Position numbers and translations under genes: made by a program
Notes under the pieces: generated by a model
The model's input: the letters and a program-made list of their open reading frames with translations, nothing else
What the model was told of the DNA's origin: nothing
Databases searched by the model: none
Part shown: positions 21,625 through 57,800 of the stretch, in pieces
Position numbering within the stretch: position 1 is the first letter of the stretch
How the letters are laid out: each line of letters opens with the position of its first letter
Source: a virus
Lineage: Duplodnaviria > Heunggongvirae > Uroviricota > Caudoviricetes
DNA length: 64,000 nt
IMG/VR virus record: IMGVR_UViG_3300028886_000034
Span: 118,081 to 182,080 of that record
Strand: one strand, 5' to 3'

Positions 21625-21898
21625 ATGGCAAATGATATTACTCGCGGCTTCTTAACTGAATCAGTTCATACTATGAATAAGATGGGCCTTGACCCTTATT
21701 CCAATTATAAAGAGATTTTAAGTGAGGATGCTCTTTTCAGCCACTATTCACAGTCTCTTGCTGAGGGTCTTGAAGGTGAGGTTAAGTCCTCATTCCTTAA
21801 TATGGCTGACCATATGCGTGGTTCTCTTGTTTCTGAGAGTACTGCTTATGGCTTTAGTCCTATTGCTCCCCTTACGCTTCCTATTTTCAGAAGGATGT
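21625..21898 (+). CDS. Major capsid protein (T4 gp23-like), exon 1 of 4; join(21625..21898,22189..23036,23356..23415,25282..25683), 527 aa
   Basis: GGAGG RBS. Ends LPIFRRM; splicing gives RRM-W-PQLVAREALTVLPM, matching the gp23 RRxxPxLxA...PM segment. Confidence 0.85.
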
Positions 21899-22188
21899 AG
21901 TAAAATTTGAGGCATGCATCCTAAAATTAATGCGAATTGCTGGAAAGTCCTAAAATTAAATATACTACAATGTATATAGTTAATAAATATTTAAATTGGA
22001 TAATCAGCAGGATATACTCTTATTAAAGAGAAATCTTCAACGACTAATTAAAGTTAACTAGTAATAGTTAAAACTTAAAGCACATTAACTCTATATAATA
22101 TAGAGATGATATAGTCTAATTGTATTCTTTATATAATGAAAATTAAATATCAGCTTATTTAATAAGTTATTAAAGTTGATGAATACAG
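21899..22188 (+). ncRNA. Group I intron 1 in MCP (290 nt, no ORF)
   Basis: Core: GAATTGCTGGAAA 21934, AATCAGCAGG 22002, TTCAACGACTA 22036, GATATAGTCT 22108. P1: exon GGATGT / GCATCC 21916 (U-G). P10: TGAGGC / exon-2 GCCTCA. P9.0: TGTATTC / GAATACA, then terminal G. Confidence 0.92.
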
Positions 22189-23036
22189 GGCCTCAGTTAG
22201 TTGCCCGCGAAGCTCTTACAGTCCTTCCCATGGACAAGCCCGAAATTGCTAAGAGCTTTATGAGAATTGTTGCCACTGTTGGTGGTAACGAGGTGGAAAT
22301 GCCCAACAACCGTGTTAGTGTTTCGACCGGTCAGGCATTTGGTGAATTGGGCCTCAATGTTGACATCGAGCCCATCAATGTTGTTATTTCAGGTAGCGGC
22401 GATCATATCCATCGTCTTGACCTTCTTGATCATATGAGCAATAGAGCTGGTCAGCCTGGTAAGTTCAATCCTACCAATGCTCACATTACTTCTGCTGATT
22501 TCGCCATTGTTGGCGTTACTCGCAGTGACGGTAAGGAAATTGATATCCATGTTGAGCCTGAAGACAGTGGCGCTTTTAGCTTTGCTGTTGAGTGCGATGG
22601 TATTGAGGATATCGTTTCTGGTAATATCAATTATACGACTGGTGTCTTCTCAATTTCTTCGACTCGTGAACATGCCAGTGGCGTGAAGGTTGAAAGTGTC
22701 CGTATTGTTGGTTCAATGACTCAGGCCGAGGAGATGTACGCTAATAAGGTTCACCTTAAGAATACATACGTTAAGTTCCGCGCCGAAGACATCGAGATTC
22801 AGACTGACTGGACGATCCAGGAAGAGCAGGACTATAAGGCCTACTTCGACATCGACATCCAGACTCAGCTTGTTGACCATATGGGTAAGATTATTGCTAT
22901 GGATATCGACCGTCGAATCCTTAATAAGCTTATTCGTGAGACTGAGCTTTTCAATCCTACCTCCTGTGGTAATGGCACCAGTGATGCCGATAGATTTACG
23001 TTTGATCGTAGACCTATGGCTAACTTTGCTTGGGGT
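22189..23036 (+). CDS. Major capsid protein exon 2 of 4
   Basis: Contains TDWTIQEEQDYKAYFDIDIQTQLVDHMGKIIAMDIDRRIL, comparable to the gp23 'wt.E.aQDl.a.hg.D.e.el...l..ei..eI.reil' region. Confidence 0.9.
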
Positions 23037-23355
23037 ACTTTTGTGCTCACTTTATAGAGTAATCTATAATGAAATCAAATATGAAATGCTGGAAGGTCCT
23101 TAGAGTCAAGTAAACTAAAAGTTGTTTAAAGCTAAATGTTGATAATTACTTGAATTGGATAATCAGCAGGATTAAATGAAAACTATAAATAAAGGTTAGT
23201 TATATTTTAATCTTCAACGACTACTTGTGTAAGACATGCTTATATGTTAAGCCAATGTCTGATGTTTATTTACCCTATAAAATATATTATGAATTTTAGG
23301 GATAAGATATAGTCTATAGTCCTTTTAATAAGTTACTAAAGTAGCTGTGGACTAG
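23037..23355 (+). ncRNA. Group I intron 2 in MCP (319 nt, no ORF)
   Basis: Core: AAATGCTGGAAG 23084, AATCAGCAGG 23161, TTCAACGACTA 23213, AAGATATAGTCT 23304. P9.0: TAGTCC / GGACTA, then terminal G. P1 is short (GGGT / GCTC). Frame is restored. Confidence 0.88.
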
Positions 23356-23415
23356 CCTAAAGAATGGAATAATCAAATCGTTGTTAAGCTCAACGATTTA
23401 AGTGCTAAAATTTAT
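23356..23415 (+). CDS. Major capsid protein exon 3 of 4 (60-nt micro-exon, PKEWNNQIVVKLNDLSAKIY)
   Basis: Not in the ORF track. Open frame between the intron 2 terminal G and the intron 3 P1 (exon AAATTTAT / GTAGGTT). Confidence 0.85.
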
Positions 23416-23883
23416 CAAAAAGTAGGTTAACTTCCTACTGTCAAGGTAAGCATATTGAGAAATCAGTATGTAGTGGTTTAATTCTTTCATATTCAATTAA
23501 ACTCCCTATCACCTGAATTGCTGGAAACTCTTAATAGTTAGTAAAACTACAACATAAATATGAAATATGGTTATATGTTAATGTTATGAAAATATAAAAA
23601 ATTTACTAAATAGTATAAGGTTAAACCCTAAGTACTTTTTTATTGCAATAGACAACCAGCATCTAAGTCCGAACAGGAAAAAGTTCAACGACTATCCCCC
23701 CTAAGGGGAGTACACTCAAGTGAGTGGAAGTGGGTGAATCCAAACAGGTAATGCTGTGGAATGAGATATAGTCTGTGCTTTAGCGAAAACTAAAGAAGGC
23801 TATTGTATATAGCCTGTGAGAAATTGACGACTTCTCATGAACAAAAACCTCTATAAATTAATTAAAGAAAATTATTGATCCTC

Positions 23884-23911
23884 TTGACTAAATGGATTTG
23901 AATGGTATACT
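23884..23911 (+). promoter_or_regulatory. Intron-internal sigma70-type promoter for tnpB
   Basis: TTGACT-16 bp-TATACT with a TG extension, then AAAGGAGG RBS at 23941. Confidence 0.55.
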
Positions 23912-23957
23912 TCTGGGTATAGAAGTTCAAATCTTTATAGAAAGGAGGATAACTAGA

Positions 23958-25235
23958 ATGAAACGAACAATTAAGCAGCGACTTAAACATCTTACTAAAG
24001 ATGAGTATTTGATTTTAAAAGAACTTACACACGAAGCTAAAAACATAGTTAATGAAGCTATTTATTTGAAGAGGCAGCATTTTTTTAATACTGGTTTATA
24101 TCTAGATGACAAAATGACTAGGAAACAAATGGAAGATAATCCTAGTTATAGGATCTTGAATTCTAATATGAGCCAACAGATTATTAAAAAAGTTGATTTA
24201 ATGTTTAAATCGTTTTTTGGATTGTTGAAAGCTAAAAAGTCTGGGAAAGTATCTTCTGATAGAAAAATACATATGCCAAGATATTTGGATAAAAATGGAT
24301 ATTATACGCTAATTATTCAAGAAGTTCCAAAATTCGAAAATAATAAATATTATGTGCCTTATACGTGGAAGTTTTCAAAAACTCATAAAAGAATAGCTAT
24401 TAAATTACCTTTAACTTTGGTTAATAAAAAAGATATGATAAAAGAAATTAGAATTGTTCCAAGGTATAATGCTAAGTTTTTCGAAGTACATTATGTGTAC
24501 AATATCGAAGAGACACAACCTCAAATTAATTTTGACTTATCAAAAGTATTAGCAATTGACCTAGGGATAAATAATTTTGCTACCTGTGTAACTACAGAAG
24601 GTAAATCATTTATTATTGATGGTAAAAAAATGAAAAGTTATAATCAATGGTATAATAAAAGAAATGCTATTCTTAGTGGGATTAAGGATAAACAAAAATT
24701 TGGAAATGACTTAACTAAGCAACAGATTTGTCTTACCTTAAAAAGAAATAATCGAATATTGGATTATATTAGTAAAGCTTCTAAGTATATTATTAATTAT
24801 TGTATTTCTAATAAAATAGGTACAATTATTTTAGGGTATCGTGAAGACTTTCAAGATAAGTTCAATATAGGAGTAAAAAACAACCAAATTTTTGGGTATA
24901 CACCTTTTGGGCAGTTTAAGTTTAAATTAGAATATTTATGTGATGAAGTTGGTATTAGCTTAATAATCCAAGAAGAGAGTTATACATCTAAAGCATCTTT
25001 TTTAGATAACGATGATATTCCTATATATGATAAAAACAATCTCCTTGAATACTCTTTCTCAGGGAGACGCATTAAAAGAGGATTATATAAATCTGCTAAG
25101 GGTATATTAATTAATGCTGATGTTAATGCTGCATTTAATATTCTTCGTAAAAGTAAGATTGTGCCTAACGAAATTGTTAGACTATATTCTAGTGGTGCTC
25201 TGAGCACACCTGTAAGAATAAGGCTACATCAATAG
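23958..25235 (+). CDS. tnpB: TnpB RNA-guided endonuclease (IS200/IS605-type, no C-terminal Zn-finger cysteines), intron-encoded
   Basis: RuvC-I LAIDLGINN, QEESYTSKASFLD, RuvC-III INADVNAAFNILRK, C-terminal TPVRI. Start moved to the ATG after AAAGGAGG (track start 23892). Confidence 0.92.
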   Translation: MKRTIKQRLKHLTKDEYLILKELTHEAKNIVNEAIYLKRQHFFNTGLYLDDKMTRKQMEDNPSYRILNSNMSQQIIKKVDLMFKSFFGLLKAKKSGKVSSDRKIHMPRYLDKNGYYTLIIQEVPKFENNKYYVPYTWKFSKTHKRIAIKLPLTLVNKKDMIKEIRIVPRYNAKFFEVHYVYNIEETQPQINFDLSKVLAIDLGINNFATCVTTEGKSFIIDGKKMKSYNQWYNKRNAILSGIKDKQKFGNDLTKQQICLTLKRNNRILDYISKASKYIINYCISNKIGTIILGYREDFQDKFNIGVKNNQIFGYTPFGQFKFKLEYLCDEVGISLIIQEESYTSKASFLDNDDIPIYDKNNLLEYSFSGRRIKRGLYKSAKGILINADVNAAFNILRKSKIVPNEIVRLYSSGALSTPVRIRLHQ

Positions 25236-35034: not shown

Positions 35035-37956
35035 ATGCCTATTACATATACTTGGGCTGAAGTAGAACCTGTACATGTAGAACAGTATATTACTGCTGAA
35101 AGAAATAATGAACAGAATGATATACTTCAGTCTAGAGATTTATTTTTATCTAGACGATTTGATGAGTATTATAAAAAAGTAGATATTGATAACTTATTTA
35201 ATTCATATACAACAAATTTAGATTGGAAAGAATCGGTAGATACATTTGATGATATTTTATTAAAGTATCCAACGCAAGAACAGATAGATACAACTTATAC
35301 TAAATTAGATACAGTTGTTAATACATATGAAGAGTTATTACAATTATATCCAAATAATTTTGATGATATTGAGTGGCAAGAACCAGTAGATAATGTTGAA
35401 GATATTGAACCTAAATATCCTCAGCCTGATGGAGAATGGGGAGTAGAAGTATTAAGTACTCATGAAAAGTATGCATATGATCCTATAACAGATACTTGGC
35501 ATAAAACAATATCTTTACCTGAAGATAAGTGGAGAGTAGATTTAGTAGATGGTACAAAGTATGTATATGATGCTGAGTCAAAAGCCTGGAAATTATTGGA
35601 TGCGCCAGTACAAGATGGTTGGACAATAAATGTAAAGGATACAAATTATACTTATAGATATGATGAACCTACTAATACATGGATACCTATAAGTGCAAAT
35701 GCTATTCCATTAGCTACAACGGAATTAGATGGTTTATTAAATAAAACTGATTATGCATTTATTAGATCATTAGGATTAGAATCAGTTTTTAAGGATATGG
35801 GATTAATCGATGAGAATGGTAATGTGGTAGATGTTCAAGGTATAGTTAATGCAAGTATAATTCCTACTATTTATTTAAAGATGTCTCAAATGGAAGAGAA
35901 GATGCTTCCATTAGGTTCAGTTATACCATTTATGTTTAATACAAATGTACCTCCAGCAGGTTTTGTCTTTGCTGAAGGTCAAGAGTTATTAAGGGAAGAG
36001 TATCCAGATCTTTGGGAAAAAATTTCTACTGAAGTAGATTTAGAAGGAAATCCATTAATTATAGAAGATGCTGATAGATATGATTATCCTGGTAAATTTA
36101 CTAAGGGTGATGGCAATGCAACATTTAGGGTACCCAATCTAAAGGGATACTTCTTAAGAGCTTTGGATGATTCTGGAAGAGAATTTGGATCTAGACAAGG
36201 TGATTCAGTTGCAGAGCATAGTCATAAATTAATGGTAACTGGCGTAGGTTCAATTAATGAAGAAGATGAGGATTTAGTTCAAGAAGGTAGATTAGTTTTA
36301 TCAGGGACTACTTCTAATTCATTTTCAGATAGTACTGTTTTAGCTAGATATACTTCCGATGAATTAGAAACTAGACCTCAAAATATTGCATTAAGATACT
36401 TAGTTAAAGTTATACCAAGTGAAAAAGTTCCTACTATAGTTTCTAAAGGAAGTCTTCCAGATATTCATGAAGCTATTGATGCAGATACTTTAAATGGCCA
36501 TGCATCTTCATTAAATGCTCAGGCTGGTTATATTCCTGTTGCTAATGCACAAGGTAAGTTAGATGCGTCTTGGTTTAATACGGATTCTTTATTTGAGGAT
36601 ATTTTTGTTAATGATTCAGAAGTATCTAATGTTCCAGATTCAAACAAAATCCCTAGAACAACTAGTACTGGAAAATTGGATGAATGGTTAAGTGTAGTTA
36701 CAGAAGCTGACGTAGATAAATGGATCAGATATTTAGCAGCAGATCCTGAAGATGAAGCTAATATATTAGACTTATCTTCTTTTGATGATTCAAGAGATAG
36801 TTATAAGTATGTTGTAACTAAAAAGAAATTTATTAAGTTTTTAACAGGATTAAAATTATTCATAGGTACTTATGACCATCATTATACTACAGAAGATATT
36901 GAACCAACTTCTGAAAGAGGCTATATTAGTAATTCTGAAAGAAATAAGTATTCTAATAAATATACTAGAGAAGAAACCTATCAGCTAATATATAATTTCT
37001 TACAAAGTTATGTTCCTTTAACAGATATTTCTGTAGTTCCTTCTCCTAATAAAATTCCTATTGCTAATGAAGATGGTAAATTAGATTCAGGTTGGATGTC
37101 AGATCTTTTCTTAAATAAGATTGGTGAAAATAATAATACTGGTTATGCAGAAGTTTCTAATCACGAAATTACTATAAAATCTGGTATTTTAAATACTTCT
37201 GAATCTGGTAAAGTTACTATTCAGGGTGGCGGAGAATACAGTTTATCTGAGATGTCTCCTGCTAAAGCTGTTATATCTGGTTATGACAATGTTGAGTCTA
37301 AAGGTGGTAATATTGAACTTTATGCTGGTTCTGGAGGTAGTACTTCTTCCTCTATTGGAGGTAGTATAATTTTACAATCAGGTTCAGGTCAGTATTCAGA
37401 TGGTACTGTTGATTTAAATAATATTAAGGTAAATAAAAATAACACTATCTATACTAATGAAAATAATATAAGATTACAACAAAATGATGGCATCAATAAT
37501 ACTAATTATTTGGAAATCAATAATAATGGTATTACTTATGTTCATGATAACTTAGTTAATGATAGTGATGATTATAGATTAACTATTAATAAAGATGGTT
37601 CAGTTGAATCCAATAAACCTAATGTTGCTAATAGTTTAACTATACTTAATAATAAAGCATTAGTACCCTTTGAAAATTTACCTAAAACTTCTATTGTAAA
37701 TAATATTGGTAATTTTAGTTCTAACCAAACTATCAGTACTTATGAAGGTAATGTTATTGTTGGAAATATTGCACAAAATTGTAATTTAACTATTGCAGAT
37801 AGTACTAACAATTTAGAAGCTAGAGAACTTACATTTGTTTTAACTGCAACTGGTCCATATAGTATAAATTGGCCTGTAAATATCATTTGGACTAGTGGAA
37901 GATCTCCTTATATAGAATATGCGGAAACTGCGATAATAAAATTATTTAGAATTGGT
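35035..37956 (+). CDS. Tail collar/tail fibre protein, exon 1 of 2; join(35035..37956,39596..39874), 1066 aa
   Basis: Tail collar domain (PLGSVIPF, PAGFVFAEGQ, FRVPNLKGYFLR, ETRPQNIAL). Exon ends FRIG at the group I P1 U-G pair. Confidence 0.8.
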
Positions 37957-38259
37957 AATCGTTAATAACGATTGCCACTTCGCAAAGTAATTTGCGTCGT
38001 ATTTTTGATTGTGAATTACGGGAAAACCTACATAAGAGTCGTAACTACCGAATGGTAATAATGTTACGAATTAGGTAATCCGTAGCCGTGTTTAATAGTA
38101 ATTAAACAGGTTCAACGACTATCGTTCATAGAGCGAGTAAGATAGACGATATATTGCGTCAATGTCTGATGTACAAAGGCCACTATTATGTGGTTGAAGA
38201 TATAGTCTAGGCATGTTAACGTACAGCGAAAGCAATGTACGAGGTTATATAGATCACCC

Positions 38260-38289
38260 TTGACAATTCCGAACAAATTATGATACTAT
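38260..38289 (+). promoter_or_regulatory. Intron-internal promoter for tnpB (sigma70-type, with embedded AACAAATT)
   Basis: TTGACA-18 bp-TACTAT with a TG extension; AACAAATT at 38272. Confidence 0.5.
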
Positions 38290-38325
38290 TGTGGTATCGG
38301 AAACATAAAATTTGTCGGACAGGAG

Positions 38326-39486
38326 GTGATGACCTTGATAATACGTCACAAAATTGAATTGATTCTTAACAATAGCATGAAACGTTATTTTGATCAGTGT
38401 TTCGGATATAGTCGATATTCGTGGAATCAACTTCTTGGGATGCATAATAACGATAAAACGACTTCTTTAAACGAACAACTTAAGCAATTTAAAGCTGATC
38501 GACAGAAGTGGGAGTATGCTATGCCATCATATATCCCTACTTATGAAATGCAGAACCTTAAAGCAGCATTAAGACGAAAAACACATAAAGCTAATTTTAA
38601 ATCTAAAAAGAATCCTAAACAATCGTTTTATGTGGATAATTCTCGTTTTTTAAAAGGAAGCTTTTCGATAGTAGGTAAGCATATAAAGTTTGGTATCGTT
38701 TTGGGAAGAAAGTGTCGAATTCGTAAACAGGACCGATGGATGAAATTAACGGAGATACCAGCGTTTTTCGGTGAAAAAGATTTCCGTATTTTATCAGTAA
38801 CGATACTTAAAGAAGTAGATCGATACTATGCGTCATTTTGTATTCAGATTGATTATCGAAGTAAAACTACCGGAACGAATGCGGTTGGTATTGATCCGGG
38901 AGTGCATACAGTGATGACACTTTCAGATGGTACAAAATACGAATCACCGAAAACACTCAAGAAACTAGATCAAAAAGCGAAATACTATCAAAAGCGTATG
39001 TCGAAACGCTATATACGAAATGCTAAGAAACAAAGTAAGCGTTATATGAAAGCGAAAATCAAGCATCAGAAAACGCTTCGCCGTAAGAATCAAATCAAAA
39101 CAGACTTTATGCATAAGGCAACAACTGAGATCGTAAAGCGAAACAATTATATCGCTTGGGAAGACTGTAAATCATCGCGACTTATGAGGAATCATAAACT
39201 CGCCAGATCGATTGGCGAATCGTGTTGGTTTACACTAAAAACGATGTTGGAGCAAAAATGTCAAATGCATAGAGCCACTTTTGATTTAGTTGATCCGATA
39301 AACGCCGCAACACAAACTTGCAGTGAGTGCGGGCATCGTTTTGAAGGTGATGAAAAGCTGAATTTAAATGACAGAGTATATATCTGCCCTGAATGCGGAT
39401 TAAAACTAGATCGAGACGTAAACGCTGCTCGAAACATTCTCAAGTTTTCGAAGCGTAAGCTGGCTGGGGCACAGCCATCCGAATAA
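38326..39486 (+). CDS. tnpB: TnpB RNA-guided endonuclease with Zn finger, intron-encoded
   Basis: N-terminal HTH-type segment (YFDQCFGYSRYSWN). RuvC motifs GIDPG, IAWED, DRDVNAARNI. Zn finger CSECG/CPECG. True start may be TTG 38335. Confidence 0.92.
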   Translation: MMTLIIRHKIELILNNSMKRYFDQCFGYSRYSWNQLLGMHNNDKTTSLNEQLKQFKADRQKWEYAMPSYIPTYEMQNLKAALRRKTHKANFKSKKNPKQSFYVDNSRFLKGSFSIVGKHIKFGIVLGRKCRIRKQDRWMKLTEIPAFFGEKDFRILSVTILKEVDRYYASFCIQIDYRSKTTGTNAVGIDPGVHTVMTLSDGTKYESPKTLKKLDQKAKYYQKRMSKRYIRNAKKQSKRYMKAKIKHQKTLRRKNQIKTDFMHKATTEIVKRNNYIAWEDCKSSRLMRNHKLARSIGESCWFTLKTMLEQKCQMHRATFDLVDPINAATQTCSECGHRFEGDEKLNLNDRVYICPECGLKLDRDVNAARNILKFSKRKLAGAQPSE

Positions 39487-39595
39487 CGCTGGAGTAGTCA
39501 TAAGACCTCCAGCAGTATCGGAGGCAGCTACGTTTGTACAGCGTTGAGCAAGGTCAGTAACGGAGTAATTCGTTGCGTAAGAACCTGCATGTCAG

Positions 39596-39874
39596 AATAG
39601 TGAGTGGATTGGCTGGAAAGTTGGAGATGGATCCTCTTCAAGTGGCTCAAGTAATATTCTTATAAATGAAGAAGAAGTACCACCTACAAGTTTTGATGGT
39701 GAACTTCATATCTTTGTAGAGTCTACTGAAGAAATACCTATCGATGAAGAAGATGAACCTGAAGAAGAACCAGAAATAAGTTTATCTGGATTAACTATTA
39801 ACTCTGATTCATCTAATATCACATCAACAGATTCAGATCTAATTATCTTAAAAGATACTAGATTTAATAGCTAG
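39596..39874 (+). CDS. Tail collar/fibre protein exon 2 of 2 (92 aa), not in ORF track
   Basis: In frame after the intron terminal G (NSEWIGWKVGDG...RFNS*). Restores a GxxWxG motif like that of the 16635 protein. Confidence 0.8.
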   Translation, partial: NSEWIGWKVGDGSSSSGSSNILINEEEVPPTSFDGELHIFVESTEEIPIDEEDEPEEEPEISLSGLTINSDSSNITSTDSDLIILKDTRFNS

Positions 39875-39881
39875 GTGAACT

Positions 39882-40412
39882 ATGGGAACTCTTAGGCATA
39901 TGACTGATTATATCCTTCCAGATATTTCATCTGGTTGGGATGAAAAAAAGAAAAATACTGTTAAGTTAGATAATGAAAGATTAGTAGTTACTTCAGATGG
40001 CTTTTTTATTCATGAAGAAGATGAACCTGAACATGATTATCCTCATGTAGTTTTTATTGATGATGTTTTTGATGAAGAAACTGGATATACTATGGCTTAT
40101 AATGCTAAAGTAGGTACTGTTATTCCTATATTAGAATCAGCTTATGATAGATATAAAAATGAATGGCTAATATGTGATGGAAAAACTTATTTTAAAAAAG
40201 ACTACCCTATGCTTTTTAATGTTATTAAGAATGTATTCTATAATGAAAATGCTATTGGGGATGAAATTCCAGTTTATATTTGTGAGTTTACTTTACCTTT
40301 ATTAAAGCCTAGAAAACTTAATAGTCTTAGTGATGAAAAAGTTATTTGGATTATAAAAGCAAAAAGAAGAGAGCAAGGAAATCATTATCTTAAGGATGAT
40401 GATAGAATATAG
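39882..40412 (+). CDS. Protein with tail-collar-like domain
   Basis: VGTVIP, WLICDGKT...DYPMLF, FTLP.L. Confidence 0.65.
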   Translation: MGTLRHMTDYILPDISSGWDEKKKNTVKLDNERLVVTSDGFFIHEEDEPEHDYPHVVFIDDVFDEETGYTMAYNAKVGTVIPILESAYDRYKNEWLICDGKTYFKKDYPMLFNVIKNVFYNENAIGDEIPVYICEFTLPLLKPRKLNSLSDEKVIWIIKAKRREQGNHYLKDDDRI

Positions 40413-40455
40413 AAAAAGAAACCCCAGCCTTATTATAGGACTTACGGGTTAGAAA

Positions 40456-49510: not shown

Positions 49511-51328
49511 ATGCCTAATATAACTTCATTAGCAGATGCTGCATTAGAAAAACTTAAATGCAGAGATTTGGAAACAGGTTTCCAATATTTTTTAGAAAAC
49601 TATGCTATGCTGCCTGAATCAGGTACAGGTAAATTAATTCATTTTAAACCTTGGCCTATTCAAGAAAAAACTTATATAAAAACTTGGGTAGATATTTGGA
49701 AAAAAGAACGAGAGGCTTCTGATAATGGAACTAAACCGGATAAGAATGGTATGATATTTATGGCATCGAGACAGTGTGGTAAAACACAATTGTCTGAAGG
49801 TTTAAGTTCATGGCTATTAACTTGTTTTGATAATTATGAAATATTACATTTTACTAAAGATACTACATTTGCTAAAAAGACTATATCTGAAGTTCATGCT
49901 ATGATAGATAATCTTCCTAAGTTTTTAAGACCAGAATATGTGACAGATACTAAGGATAAAGGGTTTACTTTAGCTAATGGTTCTGCTTTTAGAGTTGAAT
50001 CTGCAAATAGTTCAAGTAAAAAAGGTGGTTCTGCTAAAGGTAGAGGTTACAGACCGCTTTTAGTGTGGATTGACGAGGCTGCTTTTGTAGACCTTAAAGA
50101 ACACTTATCTGCTATTTTACCTGCTACTTCAATGAGCTTTACGGTAGCTTTAAAAAATAAAATTCCTTATGGTGTTATATATACTTCTACTCCTAATGGT
50201 AGATCTGGAACTGGGCAAGGATTCTATGAAGAGTGGATGGCTTGCGAACAGGGAGATCCTACTAACTTAATTGCAGTTAAATATCTATGGAGTGAAACTG
50301 GAGTATATGATGATAAATGGTTTGAAGGAGTTTGCGCCGCAGAGCATTGTACTCCAGATAAAATCAATGCTAAAGTTGATCAGGAGTATAACCTTAAATT
50401 TATTGCTAATGATCAGTCATTATTCCCTAATGAAATTATGGGAGATTTACAAGATGAATCAAAAGCAACTAAACCAGTTTCTGAAGAAAAATTTACAGAT
50501 GGCTATATTAAATGGTTTGAATTGCCTAATCCTAATAAAGGATATATAGTAGGCATAGATACAGCTACTATGGATGGTACTGACTCATCAACTATAGAAG
50601 TTATAGATTATCATACTGAGAATCAGGTTTGTGAGGCTAAATTTAAATGTTCTGTTACAGATTTTTGCGATAGATATATACCTAAAGTATTAGATTATTT
50701 ACCATATAAATTAATTGCTATAGAGAAGAATGGCGTTGGCAACCAGACATTAGAAATGCTTTCAAAGAAATATAAATTTGATATATTTGGGGATTATAGC
50801 GATATTTACAATCCTAAGTTAGGCATACATTCTACAGTAAATAGTAGAAGATTATGTGTGGAGCAGATTTATAACTTATTTATGTATAATTTGGACAAAG
50901 TAAAATCATATCAATTAAGATTAGAAGCAACTACATTAGAAAGAAGAAGAAATGGCAGAATCGAAGGGGTACCTCATGATGATCTTTGTTTTGCTATAGG
51001 TTGGTGTAGATATTTACTAGAGCATGAACAGAAGTTTGTTTTTAATCATTTAAAAAATGCTAGAAATAGACAAACAGATTCTGAACTAATGGATATGCTC
51101 CCAGAAATTAATAATGATCTTAAAGATGGGTACAATCCAAACTTATCAGAAAGAAATCAAAATGCACAAGTTATGTCTGGAGGTTCTGAAGTAGTTCAAA
51201 GATTACTTGAGAATAATACTAGAAATTATACAGGAACTTCTGCGGAAGAAGTTATGGAAATGTTCCAAACATATGGAGTTAGAAAGCACTTAAATTTAGG
51301 CCAAGATGATTGGTCAGATCTTTTATAA
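49511..51328 (+). CDS. terL: Terminase large subunit (T4 gp17-like)
   Basis: Walker A SRQCGKT, Walker B VWIDEAAF, motif C STPNG; nuclease motifs VGIDTA, IEKNGVG, HDDL. Confidence 0.93.
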   Translation: MPNITSLADAALEKLKCRDLETGFQYFLENYAMLPESGTGKLIHFKPWPIQEKTYIKTWVDIWKKEREASDNGTKPDKNGMIFMASRQCGKTQLSEGLSSWLLTCFDNYEILHFTKDTTFAKKTISEVHAMIDNLPKFLRPEYVTDTKDKGFTLANGSAFRVESANSSSKKGGSAKGRGYRPLLVWIDEAAFVDLKEHLSAILPATSMSFTVALKNKIPYGVIYTSTPNGRSGTGQGFYEEWMACEQGDPTNLIAVKYLWSETGVYDDKWFEGVCAAEHCTPDKINAKVDQEYNLKFIANDQSLFPNEIMGDLQDESKATKPVSEEKFTDGYIKWFELPNPNKGYIVGIDTATMDGTDSSTIEVIDYHTENQVCEAKFKCSVTDFCDRYIPKVLDYLPYKLIAIEKNGVGNQTLEMLSKKYKFDIFGDYSDIYNPKLGIHSTVNSRRLCVEQIYNLFMYNLDKVKSYQLRLEATTLERRRNGRIEGVPHDDLCFAIGWCRYLLEHEQKFVFNHLKNARNRQTDSELMDMLPEINNDLKDGYNPNLSERNQNAQVMSGGSEVVQRLLENNTRNYTGTSAEEVMEMFQTYGVRKHLNLGQDDWSDLL

Positions 51329-51337
51329 AAACAGCTA

Positions 51338-51366
51338 TTGACACAGTTACTGAGTTCTGCTATACT
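51338..51366 (+). promoter_or_regulatory. Sigma70/SigA-type promoter
   Basis: TTGACA-17 bp-TATACT. Confidence 0.75.
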
Positions 51367-51401
51367 CTTTCTTAAGATCTAGGGAAAGGGGATATACTTT
51401 A

Positions 51402-52373
51402 ATGGTTACTTTATATGAATATTTACATGAAGTGTGCAATTTAAAGTATATCTCATCTGTAGGAAGTATTGAACAAGATTTGATTAGATTTTATAAATAT
51501 AGTACCAATACTTTAGATTTTGATAGAATACTTATTAATTATGATTCTATTTATACAGAGTTTTGGAATAGAGTAAAGATTCAAAAAGAACTGAATAATG
51601 ATCCTTCTAATAAGATTAAACTTATTAATCCTGAAGTAGGTAAATATAACAATATTGTTAAGCTTGACTTTAAAAGAGCTTTTACGAATTATAGTATAAA
51701 GTATTTAAGTAAAGAAGAATTAAGATTATATAATTATTTTTGTAATAAGATTAGTAGATCTTATTTATTGCCTGAATCAAAGAAGTATTTGTATAATTAT
51801 GTTTTAACTAATATCATATTGAGTTATAGTGGTAAGAACAAATTGAATCAATTAAGATATGATGTATATGAAGATGTGTTATATATGGGTAAGAGATATG
51901 GTGATATTATTAAATCAGAGGTAGATGGATGTTATGTAGTTACAAATGAGTATAATTATACTTATATGGATGTATTGGGCGAATATAGTGTATTTAAATA
52001 TGACTATATATACTTTTTAGATAAAGGCGTACAGATTAACAAGTATGAGAAGTCTGTAGAGATTAAAGGTATTAATAAGTTAGAACCAAATATCTATAGT
52101 ATGTTTATAAAAGAGTTTTTAATTAAGCGTAGTGATAGTGTAATTGAAAACTTCTTTTATAGCAATAAGTATAATATGCATGTAATTGATTGGTGCAAAA
52201 AGAGTAAAGATGGATTAAAAGGAAATCTTTGCTTGAAGAATTCAGTAATTGATTTAGATATAGTTACTGCAGAAGATGTGTATAAGATAAACACATATAA
52301 AGAGTATCTTAATAAGAATAGATACTTTTTGAAGATAAGTAAAGTATTAGAAGAACTAATGCTATTTAAATAA
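51402..52373 (+). CDS. Protein resembling a DNA polymerase palm domain (tentative)
   Basis: VKLDFKRAFTN (motif A-like) and SEVDGCYV (motif C-like); only 323 aa. Confidence 0.4.
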   Translation: MVTLYEYLHEVCNLKYISSVGSIEQDLIRFYKYSTNTLDFDRILINYDSIYTEFWNRVKIQKELNNDPSNKIKLINPEVGKYNNIVKLDFKRAFTNYSIKYLSKEELRLYNYFCNKISRSYLLPESKKYLYNYVLTNIILSYSGKNKLNQLRYDVYEDVLYMGKRYGDIIKSEVDGCYVVTNEYNYTYMDVLGEYSVFKYDYIYFLDKGVQINKYEKSVEIKGINKLEPNIYSMFIKEFLIKRSDSVIENFFYSNKYNMHVIDWCKKSKDGLKGNLCLKNSVIDLDIVTAEDVYKINTYKEYLNKNRYFLKISKVLEELMLFK

Positions 52374-52374
52374 G

Positions 52375-52415
52375 GAAGATATCTGAGCGTTGTTGTTCAG
52401 GTATCTTCATTTTTT
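52375..52415 (+). terminator. Intrinsic terminator
   Basis: GAAGATATCTGAGC...GTTCAGGTATCTTC followed by ATTTTTT. Confidence 0.6.
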
Positions 52416-52474
52416 ATATTTTGAACAAATAAGGAATACACCCATAACTACACTTTTAGAAAGGAAGTGTTTCA

Positions 52475-54457
52475 ATGATAGATAATGTCTTATACAATTT
52501 TAAAAATGATAATGACTGGCAGTTGAATCAGACTAGAACATTAGATCCATTTTCATTATTGCAGTCAAATACTTTAAATCAAATCAATACAATATATGGA
52601 GATAACATAGTTTTAACTGGAATGGAAATGATGACCATTCAGGATACTACTTTAAAGTTACTTATTAGAAGTGGTCAAGTTATTAAAGATAAGGTATTGA
52701 TCCAGTTTAAAAAAGATACAGAAATCTATGTAGATTACAAGAATGAATACTTTAAAAATAAAGTTAAAGATAATTCATTGATGGTAGTTGTTACATATAA
52801 GTATGAGAAAGTGATTCCAGCAAATATTGCTAGAATAGAACTTATAGAAGAAGATGACTATGATCCAGAAATACATTTAGGATTATATAGAATATTCTTT
52901 GATTCTAACGGAGATATTAGTGAAGAAGTTAGATTAATTACACCTAAAGATAATATTATCTATGAACAGATTTTACAAGAATTGAATTCAGTCACTACAT
53001 CTGCAGTGTATAATGTTTTAGGAGAAATGGGTAATGAAAAGTTAGGAGATCTGTTAGGAACTTATATTAGAGTTAAAGGTACTTCTATTTCAGGATATCA
53101 TACTACAGATAAGTATTACTTATGTAGAGCTTTACCTAAAAATAATTATAATGTAGATACTGGAGTTAATGAAATTTATAATAATAGCTTAAGGATTATA
53201 GCTACATATAATGTTGATTCTAAATTTTATCAGAATGAGTATTTGATGTATATCAATTCAAATACTTTGGAATGGAAGTTAAATACCCAATTCATTACAA
53301 ATGACTCTACTTTAACAGGATATACTGTTTATCATGATTTACTTGTATATGAAGATCCAGAGTATTATTATGTCTATGTTAAATTTAGAGGTGACGTTAA
53401 GGGTGGAGTAGAGGTATATGAAGTAGTATATAACTCAGATCAGGTTATACCTTGTAATATTGAAGAGTTAGCTCCAGATTTAACAACACAATTTAAAGTA
53501 TTCTTTGGATCAGAAAAGACTCGTAGGATTCCTACTAATACATATATTAATAACTGTCTTATTTGGAACTATTCAAATATGGGTCATGAAAGTGGCTTAG
53601 ATGCAGATTTATTAGACGGTAAGCATGGAGCATACTATGAAAAATTAGTACAGGATTTAAGAGAATACGTAGAACAGGAAGTAGAAAGATTAGCTGCTAA
53701 GATAGACCAGCTAAGACAGGATACTGAAACTTATTATATTAAAAAAGAACAGAAGCATAGTCCTAATGGAGTTGCAATATTAACTGATACTAATAGAGAG
53801 TATAAAAGTACATATAATCCAGATTTAGAACCAGAAACTTTAACTGATTCTTCTGAAATAGGTGGAGTAGTTCCACAATCAGAATTATATGTGTATAGAA
53901 TGTTTGGAGATGAAAACCAGGAGCATAGTGTAGAATTTACACATACTAATGTTGACCCTACTGGTACTAAAAGAATTAATTGTGAGGGCTATTTCCATGC
54001 TACCAAAGTTTATAATCCATTATTTAAGGATATTGCGGAGGTATTTGAAGCAGAATCTGGATGTAGCAGAAGTAATTGTGTTCATAAGATAATGGCATTA
54101 GATTGTTCTTCTGGAGTAGTTAGACCATGTAAAACAACGGATTATGCTATAATTGGAGTGTGCTCAGATACATATGGTACATTATTAGGTTCTTCTGAAG
54201 AAGAGATGGAATCTAAAGGAAATCTACTTCCAATAGCTTTATGTGGTACTGTTTGGGTTGAATTAGAAAATAGCTTAGAACCAGATTATCCTAATAATTA
54301 TTTAGGATGTTTAGTTGGACCTGGTACTAATGGTAAGGGTAGAATTATATCTAGAATGGATAAAAGAGTTTGTGTTGGTATGATTGTTGAGTATAATCCA
54401 GATACCTCGAAAGGAAAGAATTTAGTTAAAATCTTAGTTGGAAGTTATTTCAAATGA
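52475..54457 (+). CDS. Virion structural/tail fibre-like protein
   Basis: GLDADLLDGK motif. C-terminal DIAEVFE...IGVCSD...PIALCGTVWV domain is of a type seen at fibre/spike C-termini. Confidence 0.6.
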   Translation: MIDNVLYNFKNDNDWQLNQTRTLDPFSLLQSNTLNQINTIYGDNIVLTGMEMMTIQDTTLKLLIRSGQVIKDKVLIQFKKDTEIYVDYKNEYFKNKVKDNSLMVVVTYKYEKVIPANIARIELIEEDDYDPEIHLGLYRIFFDSNGDISEEVRLITPKDNIIYEQILQELNSVTTSAVYNVLGEMGNEKLGDLLGTYIRVKGTSISGYHTTDKYYLCRALPKNNYNVDTGVNEIYNNSLRIIATYNVDSKFYQNEYLMYINSNTLEWKLNTQFITNDSTLTGYTVYHDLLVYEDPEYYYVYVKFRGDVKGGVEVYEVVYNSDQVIPCNIEELAPDLTTQFKVFFGSEKTRRIPTNTYINNCLIWNYSNMGHESGLDADLLDGKHGAYYEKLVQDLREYVEQEVERLAAKIDQLRQDTETYYIKKEQKHSPNGVAILTDTNREYKSTYNPDLEPETLTDSSEIGGVVPQSELYVYRMFGDENQEHSVEFTHTNVDPTGTKRINCEGYFHATKVYNPLFKDIAEVFEAESGCSRSNCVHKIMALDCSSGVVRPCKTTDYAIIGVCSDTYGTLLGSSEEEMESKGNLLPIALCGTVWVELENSLEPDYPNNYLGCLVGPGTNGKGRIISRMDKRVCVGMIVEYNPDTSKGKNLVKILVGSYFK

Positions 54458-54873
54458 GATATAAATTAATCCTTAAAGAAGATTTGGGTAATACTCCTAA
54501 AGGTTATAAAGATATAAATCATATTATAGATAACTGTAATGAATGGTTTGAAAATAATGGTAATAAATCTGATTTAAAAATATGGAAACAACATATACAA
54601 ATAAGAAATTGGGCCAAAGAACTTAAAAAGTATAGAAGTAAGTTTGGCCCAATTACTTTTGAAAGAAAATTAAGTGAATTAAAATTAAAAAAGAAACCAA
54701 CTGATAAAGATGGTTTTATAACTTTAGATACAGCTATACTCAGTATGTTTAGAAATTGGAAACATAAGAAGTACGATTTAGAAGATAAGAATAGGGAGTT
54801 AATGTATTGCTTAATTGAGTTAAGGGAGTATAGAAAGAAATTTAAAAAACAAGATTTTAGTGGAAAGTTTTAA
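54454..54873 (+). CDS. Putative internal head protein (MRYKLILKE leader)
   Basis: Same leader as the 27-31 kb cluster; ATGA overlap. Confidence 0.7.
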   Translation: MRYKLILKEDLGNTPKGYKDINHIIDNCNEWFENNGNKSDLKIWKQHIQIRNWAKELKKYRSKFGPITFERKLSELKLKKKPTDKDGFITLDTAILSMFRNWKHKKYDLEDKNRELMYCLIELREYRKKFKKQDFSGKF

Positions 54874-54897
54874 TAATAAGAGGTGGTGAGATAACTA

Positions 54898-57800
54898 ATG
54901 GCAAATGCTTCACCAACAACAAAAGTAGTTCCATCATTTGATCCTTTTGATATTAAAGAACAGATAGTGGAGCTCGCACAAAACTATTTTAATTTAGATG
55001 AAATTGATACATATGAATCAGGTTTTATGGGATACTTGATTCAAGCATTAACTTATTTAACAAGTGATGTATTATATCAGAATGCTTTATCATATAATGA
55101 AGCTTTTTTAAATAGAGCTTTATTAAGAACTTCAGTAACACATATCGCAGATCAATTAGATTATAAGATTAAAAATGCTACTCCAGCGATGGGAACATTA
55201 ACAGTAGCAGTTCCAATTACTTTAAATCATAATACCAGTATTAAGATAAGTGCAGGTTCAGATATTAATGCTGGAGGAATACCATATAAAGTTTATAATA
55301 CTTATTATATTAAACAGGGAAGAAATGGATTACACGTTACAGCATATAATTCTGATACTGGATTAGTAGAAGCTATTCCATATAATATAGAAATGCATGA
55401 TGGAGATATTACAGTAGTATTTGGAATACAAATATGGCAGGTTAATATCTATACTTATGATTTAGAGATAGATAATCCAGTGTTATATCAATTCTATAAA
55501 ACTACTGTAACTGGATTTGAAGGAGAATTATATCGAGTTACTGTAGATATAGAAGAAGAAAAATATAAAGAAATTAAATCTATTTATCAAAGTACTTATG
55601 ATGGTCGAGAATATGAACTGAGTTATTCTCCTTCTAATGGAGACGAAGAAAGTAAATTAACAATTAAATTAGGTAATGGAGTATATGGATATCAGCCTAA
55701 ATCTGGAGCTAAAGGAACAATAACAATTTATACTACATTAGGCGCATCAGGTAATATTGCGTCTGATGTGGCTAGATTTGATGCCAGATTAATTAATACT
55801 TTAGATACTTCTGAGGGAGAACTCACAGTATTAAGTACTAATAGATTAGCTATTCAAAATGGAAGAGATGCTGAAACCTTACAAGAAATTAAAAGACATA
55901 CTGTAGAATCTATTAGTGCAGCTAAAAGATTAGTTACTCAAGAGGATTATAAAGGTTATGCCGGAGTAACTGGGTTAACCAATATTATAGCTATGCCAAT
56001 GTTAAATCGAAGAGATGTTGTAGGTAATGATATTACTATTTATAACGCTTTATATGATTCAGATTATAAATTAGTTCCAACAGCATCAATACCAGTTAGA
56101 TTAGATTCAGCAAATCCTAGAATTAATAAAGGTACTAAAATTGTTGGATTTGATGGTAATGAATATTGCTGTCCTTTTGATATTATATACGACGATAGTT
56201 ATGATGTACCCACTACACAGTATGTTTATAATTTAGCATCTACAAAAGTAGCTCCTATATTATTTACAGATACTACTCCTGATGATGTTGAAATGGCAGT
56301 AAGAATGGCTCAGGCTAAAGTTTATCCAAATACTGAAGAGCTAGTTTATACAATTGAAATAGCTAAATTAGATACTATGAAAGTAGAAAATATTAGTGCT
56401 ATTTTATATATTAATAATAATTCAGAACAGATACCATTAAACTTTACTCAGGAATATAATAATAAGACAGTTATGAACATGTCTTCAGATGCTATTTCAT
56501 ATGTTAATTATCCAGTAGGAGAATTCCCTTGGAAAGTAGTTTTATATTATACCTATCCTAATACAACTGAAGCTATTGAATATGCTACGTATACTGGCAC
56601 TTTCAATATATTTGAATCTGGAGCTATTGTTGAGGATGAAGAAATTACTGAATTAGTAACTAGTTCTAATACAGATACTTACTTATCTATTAAAGAATTT
56701 AGTTTTAAATTAAATAATGATAAGCAAAGTGGCGTATTTTCAGTACCAGTATTAGTATTAAATACTGAAGATTATTTAGGTAATAAAATAGATACTTCTT
56801 CGTTCTATGTTACTGGGTATTTAAGAGATCCTTATACTGGGGAATTCAATAGAGAAATGACCTTTGTTTTGCATGGTATTGGGGAAGGTAGGTATACTTA
56901 TAGCAGTAAAACAGTACCTTTATCAGATCTTTATGAAGGTAATATAGATGTCCAGTTTAGAATCTATGTAAAAGATGCAAATGGTGTTTTTAATGTTTTG
57001 TATAATATTTACGAAGGAAACTTTGTTATATTAACTGAAGGAAAAAGAGCTCCAGATACTATTCAAGATAAGGTTACAGAATACAGTTCTGAACCTAAGA
57101 TAGAAATGGTTCATTTAGGGCTTTCATCTATAGATATTTCATCTCCAGATAATGGAGAAAGTTATGTTTTTATTTGTAATGTCAATAAGTTACCTCAAAA
57201 TGCATCTTCTAAAATTACAGTTAATTTAACTATGACTACTAATAGTTATGATCTAAGTCAGACAAATGAGTACTATATGGAATACACTGGAGATATGATA
57301 GAAGTAGAAGATGATGATGAGAGAAGTAAATCATCTATGTGTGTATTTACTTCACCAAAAATAAAAAGTGAAAACATACCTACTGGTCAAGTTACTTTTA
57401 AAATTACTTTAAAGTATGATGGTAAAAACATTGCTACCTATAAACAAAGTACTATTTTTAAACAAGATATTACTAGAATTATTAGAAGTGATGTCCATAG
57501 ATTTACCGATGGGTTATTATATGCTTGTAATGTTCCAGTAATTCTTAAAGAATGGTACGACCAAAATTTAGAGTATCTTGATCAGGAAATACTTTCAAGA
57601 TTCTTAAATCTTAGTAATACCTTTAATCAATATGGTATGATTACAGATAGAATCAATATTAAGTTTGTAAGAACTTGTGGTAAGAGTACTAATATGACGT
57701 TAAATAACTATATGCCTAATCCAGTTAAAAGTTATAATGAAGATTTTAGTATAGATTTACCAGTTAAAATACATATTAGATTATTTGTATCTGAGGATGT

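Follow-up and report, generated by a model that had tools for sequence, protein, structure and literature searches.

A TnpB-only IStron of the IS200/IS605 type in the tail-collar fibre gene of a large phage, with relatives at other sites

The window, a stretch of 64,000 nt from the complete 284-kb genome of a phage, contains a tail-collar fibre gene that is interrupted by a group I intron carrying tnpB (Table 1). The product of exon 1 matches Pfam Collar and the PHROG tail fibre families, and is collinear with an intron-less homologue of 1,066 aa (P0001). As the initial annotation had noted, the open reading frame of 976 aa that begins with exon 1 (35035-37965) ends inside the intron, at a TAA lying 9 nt past the predicted 5′ splice site. 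Fusion of 37956 to 39596 produces FRIG|NSEWIG followed by the remainder of 92 residues, exactly the junction that had been proposed, and the identical sequence occurs in P0001 (974 + 92 residues, 98% identical), which is uninterrupted across this point. Five further homologues are likewise continuous over FRIG|NSEWIG or its variants, and the exon 2 product matches the C-terminus of P0001 and of at least five other intron-less homologues. Positions 37000-40400 matched none of the GenBank phage records in a blastn search. The element had been described as the second of its sort, and indeed another TnpB-bearing intron is found in a capsid gene at 23470-25235; the same phage has a third, which lies outside the window.

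Table 1. Features of the interrupted fibre gene and of the element within it (positions are those of the window).
Feature	Position	Strand	Details
Exon 1 of tail-collar fibre gene	35035-37956	+	974 codons, ending ...FRIG
Group I ribozyme core (P1-P9)	37951-38226	+	Rfam RF00028
TTGGT	37952-37956	+	Last five bases of exon 1; predicted TAM, IS200/IS605-type target pentanucleotide and 5′ splice site
P1	37953-37977	+	Exon UGGU, extension hairpin, internal guide sequence GCCA (37974-37977); from Rfam alignment
Whole IStron	37957-39595	+	1,639 bp; absent from sister phage; similarity to copies at other sites ends here
IR stem (P9.0), 5′ strand GGCATG	38210-38215	+	Pairs with 39588-39593
P9 hairpin, GAAA tetraloop	38220-38241	+	From sequence; compensatory changes in alignment
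Promoter-like site	38260-38289	+	TTGACA, 18 nt, TACTAT with TG; inside intron, upstream of tnpB
Shine-Dalgarno of tnpB, AGGAGG	38321-38326	+	
tnpB	38335-39486	+	383 aa from TTG 38335 (probable start); mechanical ORF begins at GTG 38326
Omega-RNA-like scaffold (putative)	39461-39595	+	Stems TGGCTG/CAGCCA and GCTGGAG/CTCCAGC, GTTGAGCAAGG block, subterminal hairpin, end ...GAACCTGCATGTCAG
Subterminal hairpin of scaffold	39560-39573	+	
Predicted omega-RNA guide	39596-39615	+	First 20 nt of exon 2, by IS200/IS605 architecture (bioRxiv 10.1101/2023.11.20.567912)
Exon 2 of fibre gene	39596-39874	+	Last 92 codons and stop

The boundaries of the element were given by a sister phage (contig L007) in which the flanks are 97% identical, the element is missing and 37956 is joined directly to 39596. 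This empty site reads ...TTGGT|AATAGTGAG..., encodes a continuous 1,066-aa fibre and contains no target duplication. Since the DNA of the sister phage sets the element boundaries, the predicted splice junction falls at 37956|39596. Both splice sites, which had been placed from the intron's pairings, are thereby borne out by the empty-site allele, and likewise by the intron-less homologues, by covariation and by the copies at other sites. Separate translation of 39596-39874 was also considered; the exon 2 frame contains no ATG, GTG or TTG and therefore no separate start is possible.

The 5′ 270-370 nt of the element constitute the ribozyme. The match to RF00028 (59 bits against a gathering cut-off of 50, E = 2e-12) spans model positions 1-253 of 253 and is the sole Rfam match above the gathering cut-off in the window. 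The alignment includes a 46-nt insertion at the place of P7.1/P7.2 in IA introns. P1 and its extension were found as first drawn, with exon UGGU (37953-37956) pairing with GCCA and AATCGTT pairing with AACGATT. The same extension corresponds to the subterminal palindrome at the left end of IS200/IS605 elements. The 5′ splice site is marked by the U-G pair U37956-G37974, which does not vary among four aligned copies, and the last base of the intron is a terminal G (G39595). Both strands of the proposed P9.0, GGCATG and CATGTC, are likewise present, and this helix is what is termed the IR stem in IStrons. In full it reads GGCATG(T)/(G)CATGTC, comprising 6-7 bp of mixed GC and AU pairs. A stem of 5-7 bp is found in 9/9 copies, with covariation (GACATG; GGCAT/ATGCC; GGCGT/ACGCC). 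Moreover, in the alignment of four sequences 26 of the 89 predicted pairs are kept though both sides have changed, and every P1 pair shows compensatory changes. The internal guide sequence complements the last four exon bases at 4/4 positions in all nine copies, in which these exon bases vary. P10 did not survive the comparison: exon-2 AATAGT pairs at 5/6 positions in the window's copy only, and pairing is at chance level in the eight other copies. From this conserved fold we infer that the intron is self-splicing. The 6-bp GGCAUG/CAUGUC stem loops out approximately 1.37 kb of RNA with tnpB and so brings G39595 to the ribozyme core. The pre-mRNA would then self-splice to yield the 1,066-aa fibre, and any unspliced message would yield a 976-aa protein with a FRIGNR end.

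The start of tnpB is probably TTG 38335, because the start region is conserved in relatives. Its product matches Pfam OrfB_IS605, Cas12f1-like_TNB and HTH_OrfB, in addition to a PHROG, and scores 198 bits with NCBIfam guided_TnpB (NF040570; cut-off 100). Profile scores were 184 bits for IS200_TnpB and 112 bits for IS607_TnpB. The RuvC triad had been called intact and proved so: the D in GIDPG, the E in IAWED and the D in LDRDVNAA align with the catalytic residues of ISDra2 TnpB, which we take to be D191, E278 and D361. A CxxC...CxxC zinc finger is present. The nearest TnpBs outside its clade are at most 36% identical. The dN/dS of tnpB is 0.10-0.23 (21 pairs), indicating that it is under purifying selection. 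The promoter-like site upstream has 10/12 consensus matches in a consensus scan and an arrangement conserved in relatives, making it a candidate promoter for tnpB.

Downstream, the 3′ tail (39461-39595) is a putative omega RNA. The motifs picked out earlier as omega-RNA-like (GCTGGAG/CTCCAGC, TAAGAC, GTTGAGCAAGG and a GTAA-loop hairpin) are all present and are conserved in relatives. A 35-nt stretch of the scaffold is 91% conserved in comparison with a copy that has a TnpB of only 43% identity. Conservation at the 3′ side ends precisely at 39595 in ten sequences, beyond which the flanks are unrelated, and the element ends in ...GCATGTCAG in 8/10 copies and in CCAG in the remaining two. The region has a folding z-score of -2.1. 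Read by eye, the terminal hairpin keeps its position and changes its sequence among copies; RNAalifold missed it because the stems are not alignable. A scan of 39380-39640 against Rfam at E up to 10 returned no match, so the omega-RNA assignment is based on architecture and conservation. The empty site of the sister phage matches the predicted guide at 19/20 positions, behind TTGGT. The predicted TAM and predicted guide follow from the architecture and fit the family; the closest copies have 5′ flanks of NTGRT and unrelated 3′ flanks.

Relatives of the element, with TnpBs 43-90% identical to that of the window, were found at eight other sites verified in DNA. One further site (L019) was detected by 19-mer scans and is known from the 3′ end of the element only, giving ten distinct sites in total, of which each phage has a different subset. 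Two other loci from the 19-mer scans for the scaffold core (L015, L017) were discarded as unrelated chance matches. All but one of the copies at other sites are in related phages, the exception being elsewhere in the same genome. The genes interrupted in relatives include those for terminase and RNA polymerase beta′, and intron-less orthologues of six such genes are present in the host phage. At all nine DNA-verified sites (the window included) the element lies in sense orientation inside an ORF, and a long ORF reappears once it is taken out. The last base of the 5′ flank is always T (TTGGT three times, then CTGAT, ATGGT, TAGGT, GAGAT, TATGT and AATGT), and the 3′ flanks all differ.

We classify the element as a TnpB-only IStron of group A, the IS200/IS605 type; this kind has already been named (Tourasse 2014, PMC4227781) and is not a new one. 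IStrons have been surveyed in Firmicutes and Fusobacteria (PMC4227781), and the type is so far known mainly from bacteria. The group A layout, a 5′ group I intron plus a 3′ IS200/IS605-type ORF B within one pair of boundaries, is found here, and the copies at ten distinct sites in related phages lie in unrelated genes, which counts as evidence of transposition for such IStrons. Group A introns are assigned to subgroup IA2 (PMC4227781). Group A hallmarks are a T-ending pentanucleotide, a ...TCAG end, a short balanced IR stem (6-10 bp) and a P1 stem that is at the same time the left-end palindrome (PMC4227781). The window's element shows the last three of these, and its flank TTGGT has a final T and differs from TTGAT at one base, though it lies outside the three published group A motifs (TTGAT, ATTAT and TTTAT; PMC4227781). 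Among group A IStrons, the likeness to CdISt1/CdiIStron of Clostridioides difficile (Braun 2000; PMC4227781; Zedaveinyte 2023, bioRxiv 10.1101/2023.11.20.567912) is drawn from described features. It extends to the 5′ ribozyme, the 3′ TnpB with its omega RNA (putative here), the agreement of splice sites with element ends, the T-ending target, the TCAG end, the short balanced IR stem, the P1/left-end palindrome and the absence of target duplication. Many copies of group A IStrons lack TnpA, as here. However, the carriers here are large phages and not bacterial chromosomes, the target is TTGGT/NTGRT, and no trace of TnpA was found in any of the clade members examined.

ISDra2 TnpB (IS200/IS605; PDB 8EXA, 8H1J) belongs to the same protein family (E = 1e-25), with the D-E-D triad and zinc finger aligning; the TAM predicted here differs from TTGAT by a single base, and the guide, likewise predicted here, comes from DNA just past the right end in both. 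ISDra2, however, encodes a Y1 TnpA and lacks an intron. Group B IStrons (BcISt1, CboIStron, and CbISt3 and CbISt4 of the C. botulinum phages c-st and D-1873) are the same intron-TnpB chimera, and the phage-borne IStrons given in PMC4227781 are all IS607-type and all from phages of Clostridium botulinum. Group B IStrons have a serine recombinase, targets ending in GG, a 3′ end of CGG, a 5′ splice site after G and a long, AU-rich IR stem, in contrast to the flank ending in GT, the 3′ end CAG and the 6-7 mixed pairs found here, and assignment to group B was rejected. No Resolvase-family gene or serine transposase was found in the complete phage genome. Phage introns with homing endonucleases (T4 td, nrdB and sunY; Twort; SPO1) are similar in being self-splicing group I introns (predicted here) in conserved phage genes, with a patchy distribution among related phages and an expected spread, during mixed infection, through a cut in the intron-less allele. 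They differ in using protein-only GIY-YIG, HNH or LAGLIDADG enzymes, where TnpB is RNA-guided and reads its target via the adjoining exon, and in the position of the ORF, which here comes after P9, within the 1.37 kb that the IR stem loops out.

The element had also been described as foreign in composition, and this was evident in both measures taken. CGN accounts for 80% of Arg codons in tnpB vs 6% in the phage background, and the observed/expected CpG ratio is 1.6 in the element vs 0.24-0.29 in phage genes. The existence of a 97%-identical sister phage without the element makes recent acquisition plausible, although the sister may instead have lost it by recombination with an intron-less allele. 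No clear co-conversion was seen relative to the sister phage, with 8-9 mismatches per 200 nt beside the junction vs 1-8 in other bins.

A search of the complete 284-kb genome for the Y1 transposase TnpA found no PF01797 match at E up to 1, and the elements, at 1,626-1,792 bp, leave no room for TnpA in any copy. The absence of a Y1 (HUH) TnpA excludes an autonomous IS200/IS605 element. We consider it very likely, all parts of the reading taken jointly, that the insertion is a TnpB-only group A IStron that would splice from the fibre mRNA and would spread by RNA-guided intron homing. TnpB would be expressed from the promoter-like site inside the intron and/or by read-through, and would bind the 3′ scaffold (about 39461-39595) together with some 16-20 nt of exon 2 as guide. 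The complex would then cut intron-less alleles in which TTGGT is followed by the exon 2 sequence, and would spare its own locus because GTCAG occupies the TAM position there. During mixed infection, the cut allele would be repaired with the intron-bearing genome as template and so gain the element, and such homing would also put the rival phage at a disadvantage. Spread of TnpA-less IStrons by intron homing was proposed, as yet unvalidated, in a 2026 review (PMC13565253).

Homing cannot explain the ten different sites. As the phage has no TnpA, new sites need a transposase in trans or some other route. The hairpins at the two ends of the window's copy are dissimilar, and mobilisation by a Y1 transposase is therefore doubtful. 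Candidate routes may include a host Y1 transposase, reverse splicing by the 4-nt guide sequence and repair at partly matching sites. It is conceivable, though we hold the idea tentatively, that this IStron clade gave up its transposase and became an RNA-guided homing intron among co-infecting large phages, reaching new genes without a transposase of its own. Should this hold true, the 'intron homing by TnpB' that has been proposed could for the first time be followed from genome to genome in nature.

Three other explanations were weighed. Were there no splicing, the fibre would stop at 37965 with 976 aa and 39596-39874 would be a dead remnant or a separate gene. A stop codon does lie 9 nt into the insertion, and splicing is itself deduced from sequence. 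However, the exon 2 frame is still open over 92 codons and offers no ATG, GTG or TTG, the DNA of 39596-40424 (exon 2 included) is approximately 98% identical to the intron-less allele, and the ribozyme both exceeds its Rfam cut-off and shows covariation. Moreover, related copies split terminase, RNA polymerase beta′ and further genes in mid-ORF, where an unspliced insertion would be lethal, and we find this explanation barely credible. A second possibility is that the intron splices, so that the insertion is harmless, and that the element is simply inherited with the phage, neither moved nor maintained any longer by TnpB and the 3′ RNA. The lack of TnpA in the phage, the single copy per site, the unlike end hairpins and the want of a clear co-conversion signal would all fit such an immobile relic. 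Set against them are a TnpB that is intact, retains its catalytic residues and experiences strong purifying selection in all copies (dN/dS 0.10-0.23), the occurrence at ten different sites in related phages with the subset differing by phage, the empty site in a 97%-identical sister, and a composition that has not drifted to that of the phage. We therefore regard a relic as unlikely.

Somewhat more room, albeit still little, is left for co-option of TnpB by the phage, either to kill intron-less competitors or to tune fibre isoforms by a block to splicing. In close relatives, the predicted guide would be directed at an essential virion gene (the 19/20 match behind TTGGT in the sister), three such elements occupy large, conserved genes of the phage, with terminase and RNA polymerase among those occupied in relatives, and in other IStrons splicing is documented to compete with the formation of omega RNA (bioRxiv 10.1101/2023.11.20.567912). 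However, killing of rivals and homing involve the same cut and are inseparable by sequence, the patchy occupancy among relatives is what is expected of a selfish element, and no phage-specific regulatory feature was found.

With regard to annotation, the fibre protein of this phage should be recorded as 1,066 aa and not 976, and gene callers will shorten it, as they will the terminase, RNA polymerase and capsid genes of relatives. The IStron described here belongs to a separate IS200/IS605-type, TnpB-only clade with at least ten occupied sites among a group of large phages. Several of these sites fall in essential or virion genes, and filled and empty alleles both occur in nature. The retention of TnpB by selection without TnpA provides a setting in which to test RNA-guided homing of TnpA-less IStrons. 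The family also supplies a set of compact (approximately 383 aa) TnpB/scaffold pairs, each with a natural target and a predicted TAM. So far, the clade has been seen only in large phage-like contigs. One of these, of 158 kb, encodes a TnpB 90% identical to that of the window (P0016) and, judged by gene order alone, apparently carries it at the same fibre site.

The final two sense codons and the stop of the tail-collar fibre ORF fall within an Rfam group I intron match, and no other match in the whole window exceeds its gathering score. With 37956 joined to 39596, the encoded protein is 974 + 92 = 1,066 residues long. Fourteen homologues were retrieved when the C-terminal portion of exon 1 served as the query; the top one (P0001, 98% identical) is exactly 1,066 aa long and continuous across the predicted junction (...KLFRIGNSEWIGWKVGD...), and P0002, P0004, P0005, P0010 and P0013 are likewise unbroken there, with minor variants. 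The sister phage contig encoding P0001 (L007) shares 97% identity with the window on either flank and reads ...AGAATTGGT followed directly by AATAGTGAGTGG..., so that the window holds a clean insertion of 1,639 bp around which no target sequence is duplicated. Because the insertion and exon 2 both start with AAT, comparison of the DNA alone leaves 0-3 nt of play in the boundary; the sole reading in which a U precedes the intron and the intron ends in G is that between 37956 and 39596. ATG, GTG and TTG are all absent from the exon-2 frame, hence separate translation of 39596-39874, an outcome considered in the initial annotation, would be impossible for want of a start codon. On sequence grounds the hidden 92-residue C-terminus proposed there is borne out by P0001, the five further homologues and the empty site. 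This fibre tail contains an acidic stretch and then a LSGLT.NSDSS...D..F motif, and the homologue P0009 carries the unit in several tandem repeats.

Features of the fibre-gene element and of other introns and TnpB genes in the 284,119-bp phage record, which is complete with terminal repeats (G000:C1; the window is bases 118081-182080)
Feature	Coordinates	Strand	Details
Tail-collar fibre ORF	35035-37965		976 aa; tail-collar domain and tail-fibre PHROG matches
Group I intron match	37951-38226		Rfam, 59 bits (gathering score 50), E 2e-12
Promoter-like site	inside intron, upstream of tnpB		TTGACA, 18 nt, TG-TACTAT; arrangement conserved
tnpB ORF	38326-39486		386 codons; Pfam OrfB_IS605, Cas12f1-like_TNB, HTH_OrfB_IS605; PHROG 506
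Group I match	21871-22139		31.8 bits
Group I match	23017-23335		27.5 bits
Group I match	23470-23795		43.2 bits
Capsid-gene intron and TnpB	23470-25235		both confirmed
Third IStron	G000:C1:211171-212962	minus	1,792 bp; L002, L005; outside window
Group I intron match	G000:C1:31737-31972	minus	47.3 bits (cut-off 50); L004; outside window

The intron was aligned with those of two other phage contigs and of the third element of this genome. Per-column identity among the four is 83%. In P1, P2, P5, P6, P8 and P9, a total of 26 predicted pairs are still paired after change on both sides. P1, in which the exon UGGU pairs with GCCA, continues on the intron side as AATCGTT/AACGATT; as described by Tourasse et al. 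2014 (PMC4227781), this extension also serves as the subterminal palindrome at the left end of IS200/IS605 elements. GGCATG (38210-15), directly past the core, and CATGTC (39588-93), which stops two bases short of the 3′ splice site, form the 'IR stem' of group A IStrons and loop out ~1.37 kb. The stem is 5-7 bp long in 9/9 copies examined and covaries among them (GACATG; GGCAT with ATGCC; GGCGT with ACGCC). A P10 had also been proposed, between exon-2 AATAGT and the P1 extension. It has 5/6 pairs in the window copy, but only 2-4/6 in the eight others, and was rejected as a feature of the family.

Related elements were retrieved from viral and metagenomic contigs using the TnpB protein and a conserved 19-mer as queries. 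Similarity to the window runs from a few bases before 37957 to 39595-39599, and the flanks are unrelated. Both sides are defined for nine insertion sites, including those of the window and the third copy; for a tenth, on contig L019, only the right side is. In each of the nine, the element sits within an ORF in sense orientation, its removal restores a long ORF, and the 5′ flank ends in T; the interrupted genes include those for a large terminase subunit and an RNA polymerase beta'-like subunit. Moreover, the internal guide sequence is complementary to the last four exon bases in 9/9 cases despite differing exon bases (UGGU/GCCA, UGAU/GUCA, AGGU/GCCU, UGGU/GCUA, AGAU/GUCU and AUGU/GCAU). The element is mobile and always an intron. 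A 90%-identical TnpB in a 158-kb contig is seemingly at the same fibre site, judged by gene order. The closest-related copies at different sites, L010:921-2548 (terminase) and L022:2110-3768 (RNA polymerase beta'), have a dS of 0.45, and both junctions read TGGT followed by TATATA, either by chance or, perhaps, because new and old sites are alike past the TAM.

The tnpB product scores 198 bits against NCBIfam guided_TnpB (cut-off 100). Its best natural match among solved structures is ISDra2 TnpB (E 1e-25), and the alignment of the two matches up all three RuvC carboxylates and both CxxC pairs. TTG 38335, nine bases past AGGAGG, is the probable real start, given how the start region is conserved in relatives. 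Across seven copies, dN/dS is 0.10-0.23 in 21/21 pairs (dS up to 1.7), indicating that the protein is kept by selection. Neither a Y1 transposase nor a serine recombinase was found in the complete phage genome, and elements of 1,626-1,792 bp leave no room for a transposase.

Conservation covers the last ~135 nt of the element and stops exactly at its final G. The 35 nt across the tnpB stop are 91% identical to the third copy, despite only 43% identity between the TnpBs, which points to constraint at the RNA level. All the motifs that the initial annotation had listed in this omega RNA-like tail are present. Compared with shuffled controls, the region has the more stable fold (z = -2.1), and it matches no Rfam family; its subterminal hairpin keeps its position among copies while the sequence is replaced. 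IS200/IS605 elements have as TAM the five nucleotides that precede their left end and take the guide from the sequence that follows their right end (bioRxiv 10.1101/2023.11.20.567912). By this rule the predicted TAM is TTGGT, or NTGRT among the four closest copies. The L007 empty site has TTGGT and then a 19/20 match to the predicted guide. TnpB would cleave such a site, and the occupied locus, with GTCAG in the TAM position, would be spared. A transcript from the promoter-like site would lack the ribozyme core and so retain the guide.

This phage has uninterrupted orthologues (72-93% aa identity) of six genes interrupted in relatives, with alignments spanning each junction; each phage of the group therefore carries a different subset of elements. 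At G000:C1 ~128030 (window ~9950), orthologous to the L023 site, there is no difference from the filled relative across the TAM (TAGGT) and the 25 nt after it, and going by this identity the relative's TnpB would have a perfect target here. In two other empty sites, G000:C1 ~168584 and ~217370 (orthologous to the L010 and L022 sites), the final T of the TAM position is C or G. The codon before the insertion point is there GGC or GGG, against GGT in the filled relatives. Through this synonymous change the TAM loses its T and the U-G pair its U, which could render the two sites immune to invasion.

The phage is 32% GC, with a CpG observed/expected of 0.24-0.29 in its genes (e.g. 4550-7042, 49511-58092); the element is 38% GC with a ratio of 1.6, a composition showing no drift toward that of the phage. 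The foreign codon usage noted in the initial annotation holds, CGN accounting for 80% of the Arg codons of tnpB but for only 6% of those in eight other phage genes. In the phage's own genes AGA accounts for ~90% of Arg codons, and CpG is strongly avoided. The undrifted composition and the 97%-identical sister phage with its site empty fit a fairly recent gain; loss from the sister by recombination is a possible alternative.

By the definition of Tourasse et al. 2014 (PMC4227781), the features are those of group A IStrons: a T-ending pentanucleotide before the insertion, a TCAG end, a U-G pair within the guide stem, a balanced short IR stem, a P1 also serving as left-end palindrome, and an ORF B of IS200/IS605 type, TnpA being frequently missing. 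The features of group B (IS607-type) IStrons are absent. Unlike in published group A members, the target here is TTGGT and the contigs that carry the elements are large (up to 180 kb) and phage-like, with three elements in one complete 284-kb phage. Identity within the TnpB clade is at least 39%, and at most 36% to the nearest TnpBs outside. The phage-borne IStrons in the IStron survey were only of group B, in Clostridium botulinum phages c-st and D-1873 (PMC4227781), and the spread of TnpA-less IStrons by intron homing is described as an idea awaiting validation in a 2026 review (PMC13565253). The original observation of a TnpB-carrying intron in the fibre gene is confirmed, and its interpretation supported.

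There are four TnpB-family genes in the genome. In the gp23-like capsid gene region (21871-25235), three further group I intron matches lie below the Rfam cut-off, and the last of them precedes a TnpB of 447 aa (23892-25235) essentially unrelated by BLASTP to that of the fibre gene. Its composition is nearer that of the phage (GC 27.6%, CpG observed/expected 0.61), suggesting that it has been resident for longer. The third IStron is 43% (TnpB) and 75% (intron) identical to the element studied, with AATGT as 5′ flank and a CCAG end. Its removal links an upstream open frame of 541 codons with 970 codons downstream, about 1,511 together, and the parts of this gene scanned gave no Pfam match. The group I match at G000:C1:31737-31972 has no adjoining TnpB match and is partly 73% identical to the core of the studied intron. 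A 398-aa ORF at 60375-61571 (minus strand) carries RNA ligase and PHA02142 OB-fold domains (Pfam), notable in a genome with several self-splicing introns.
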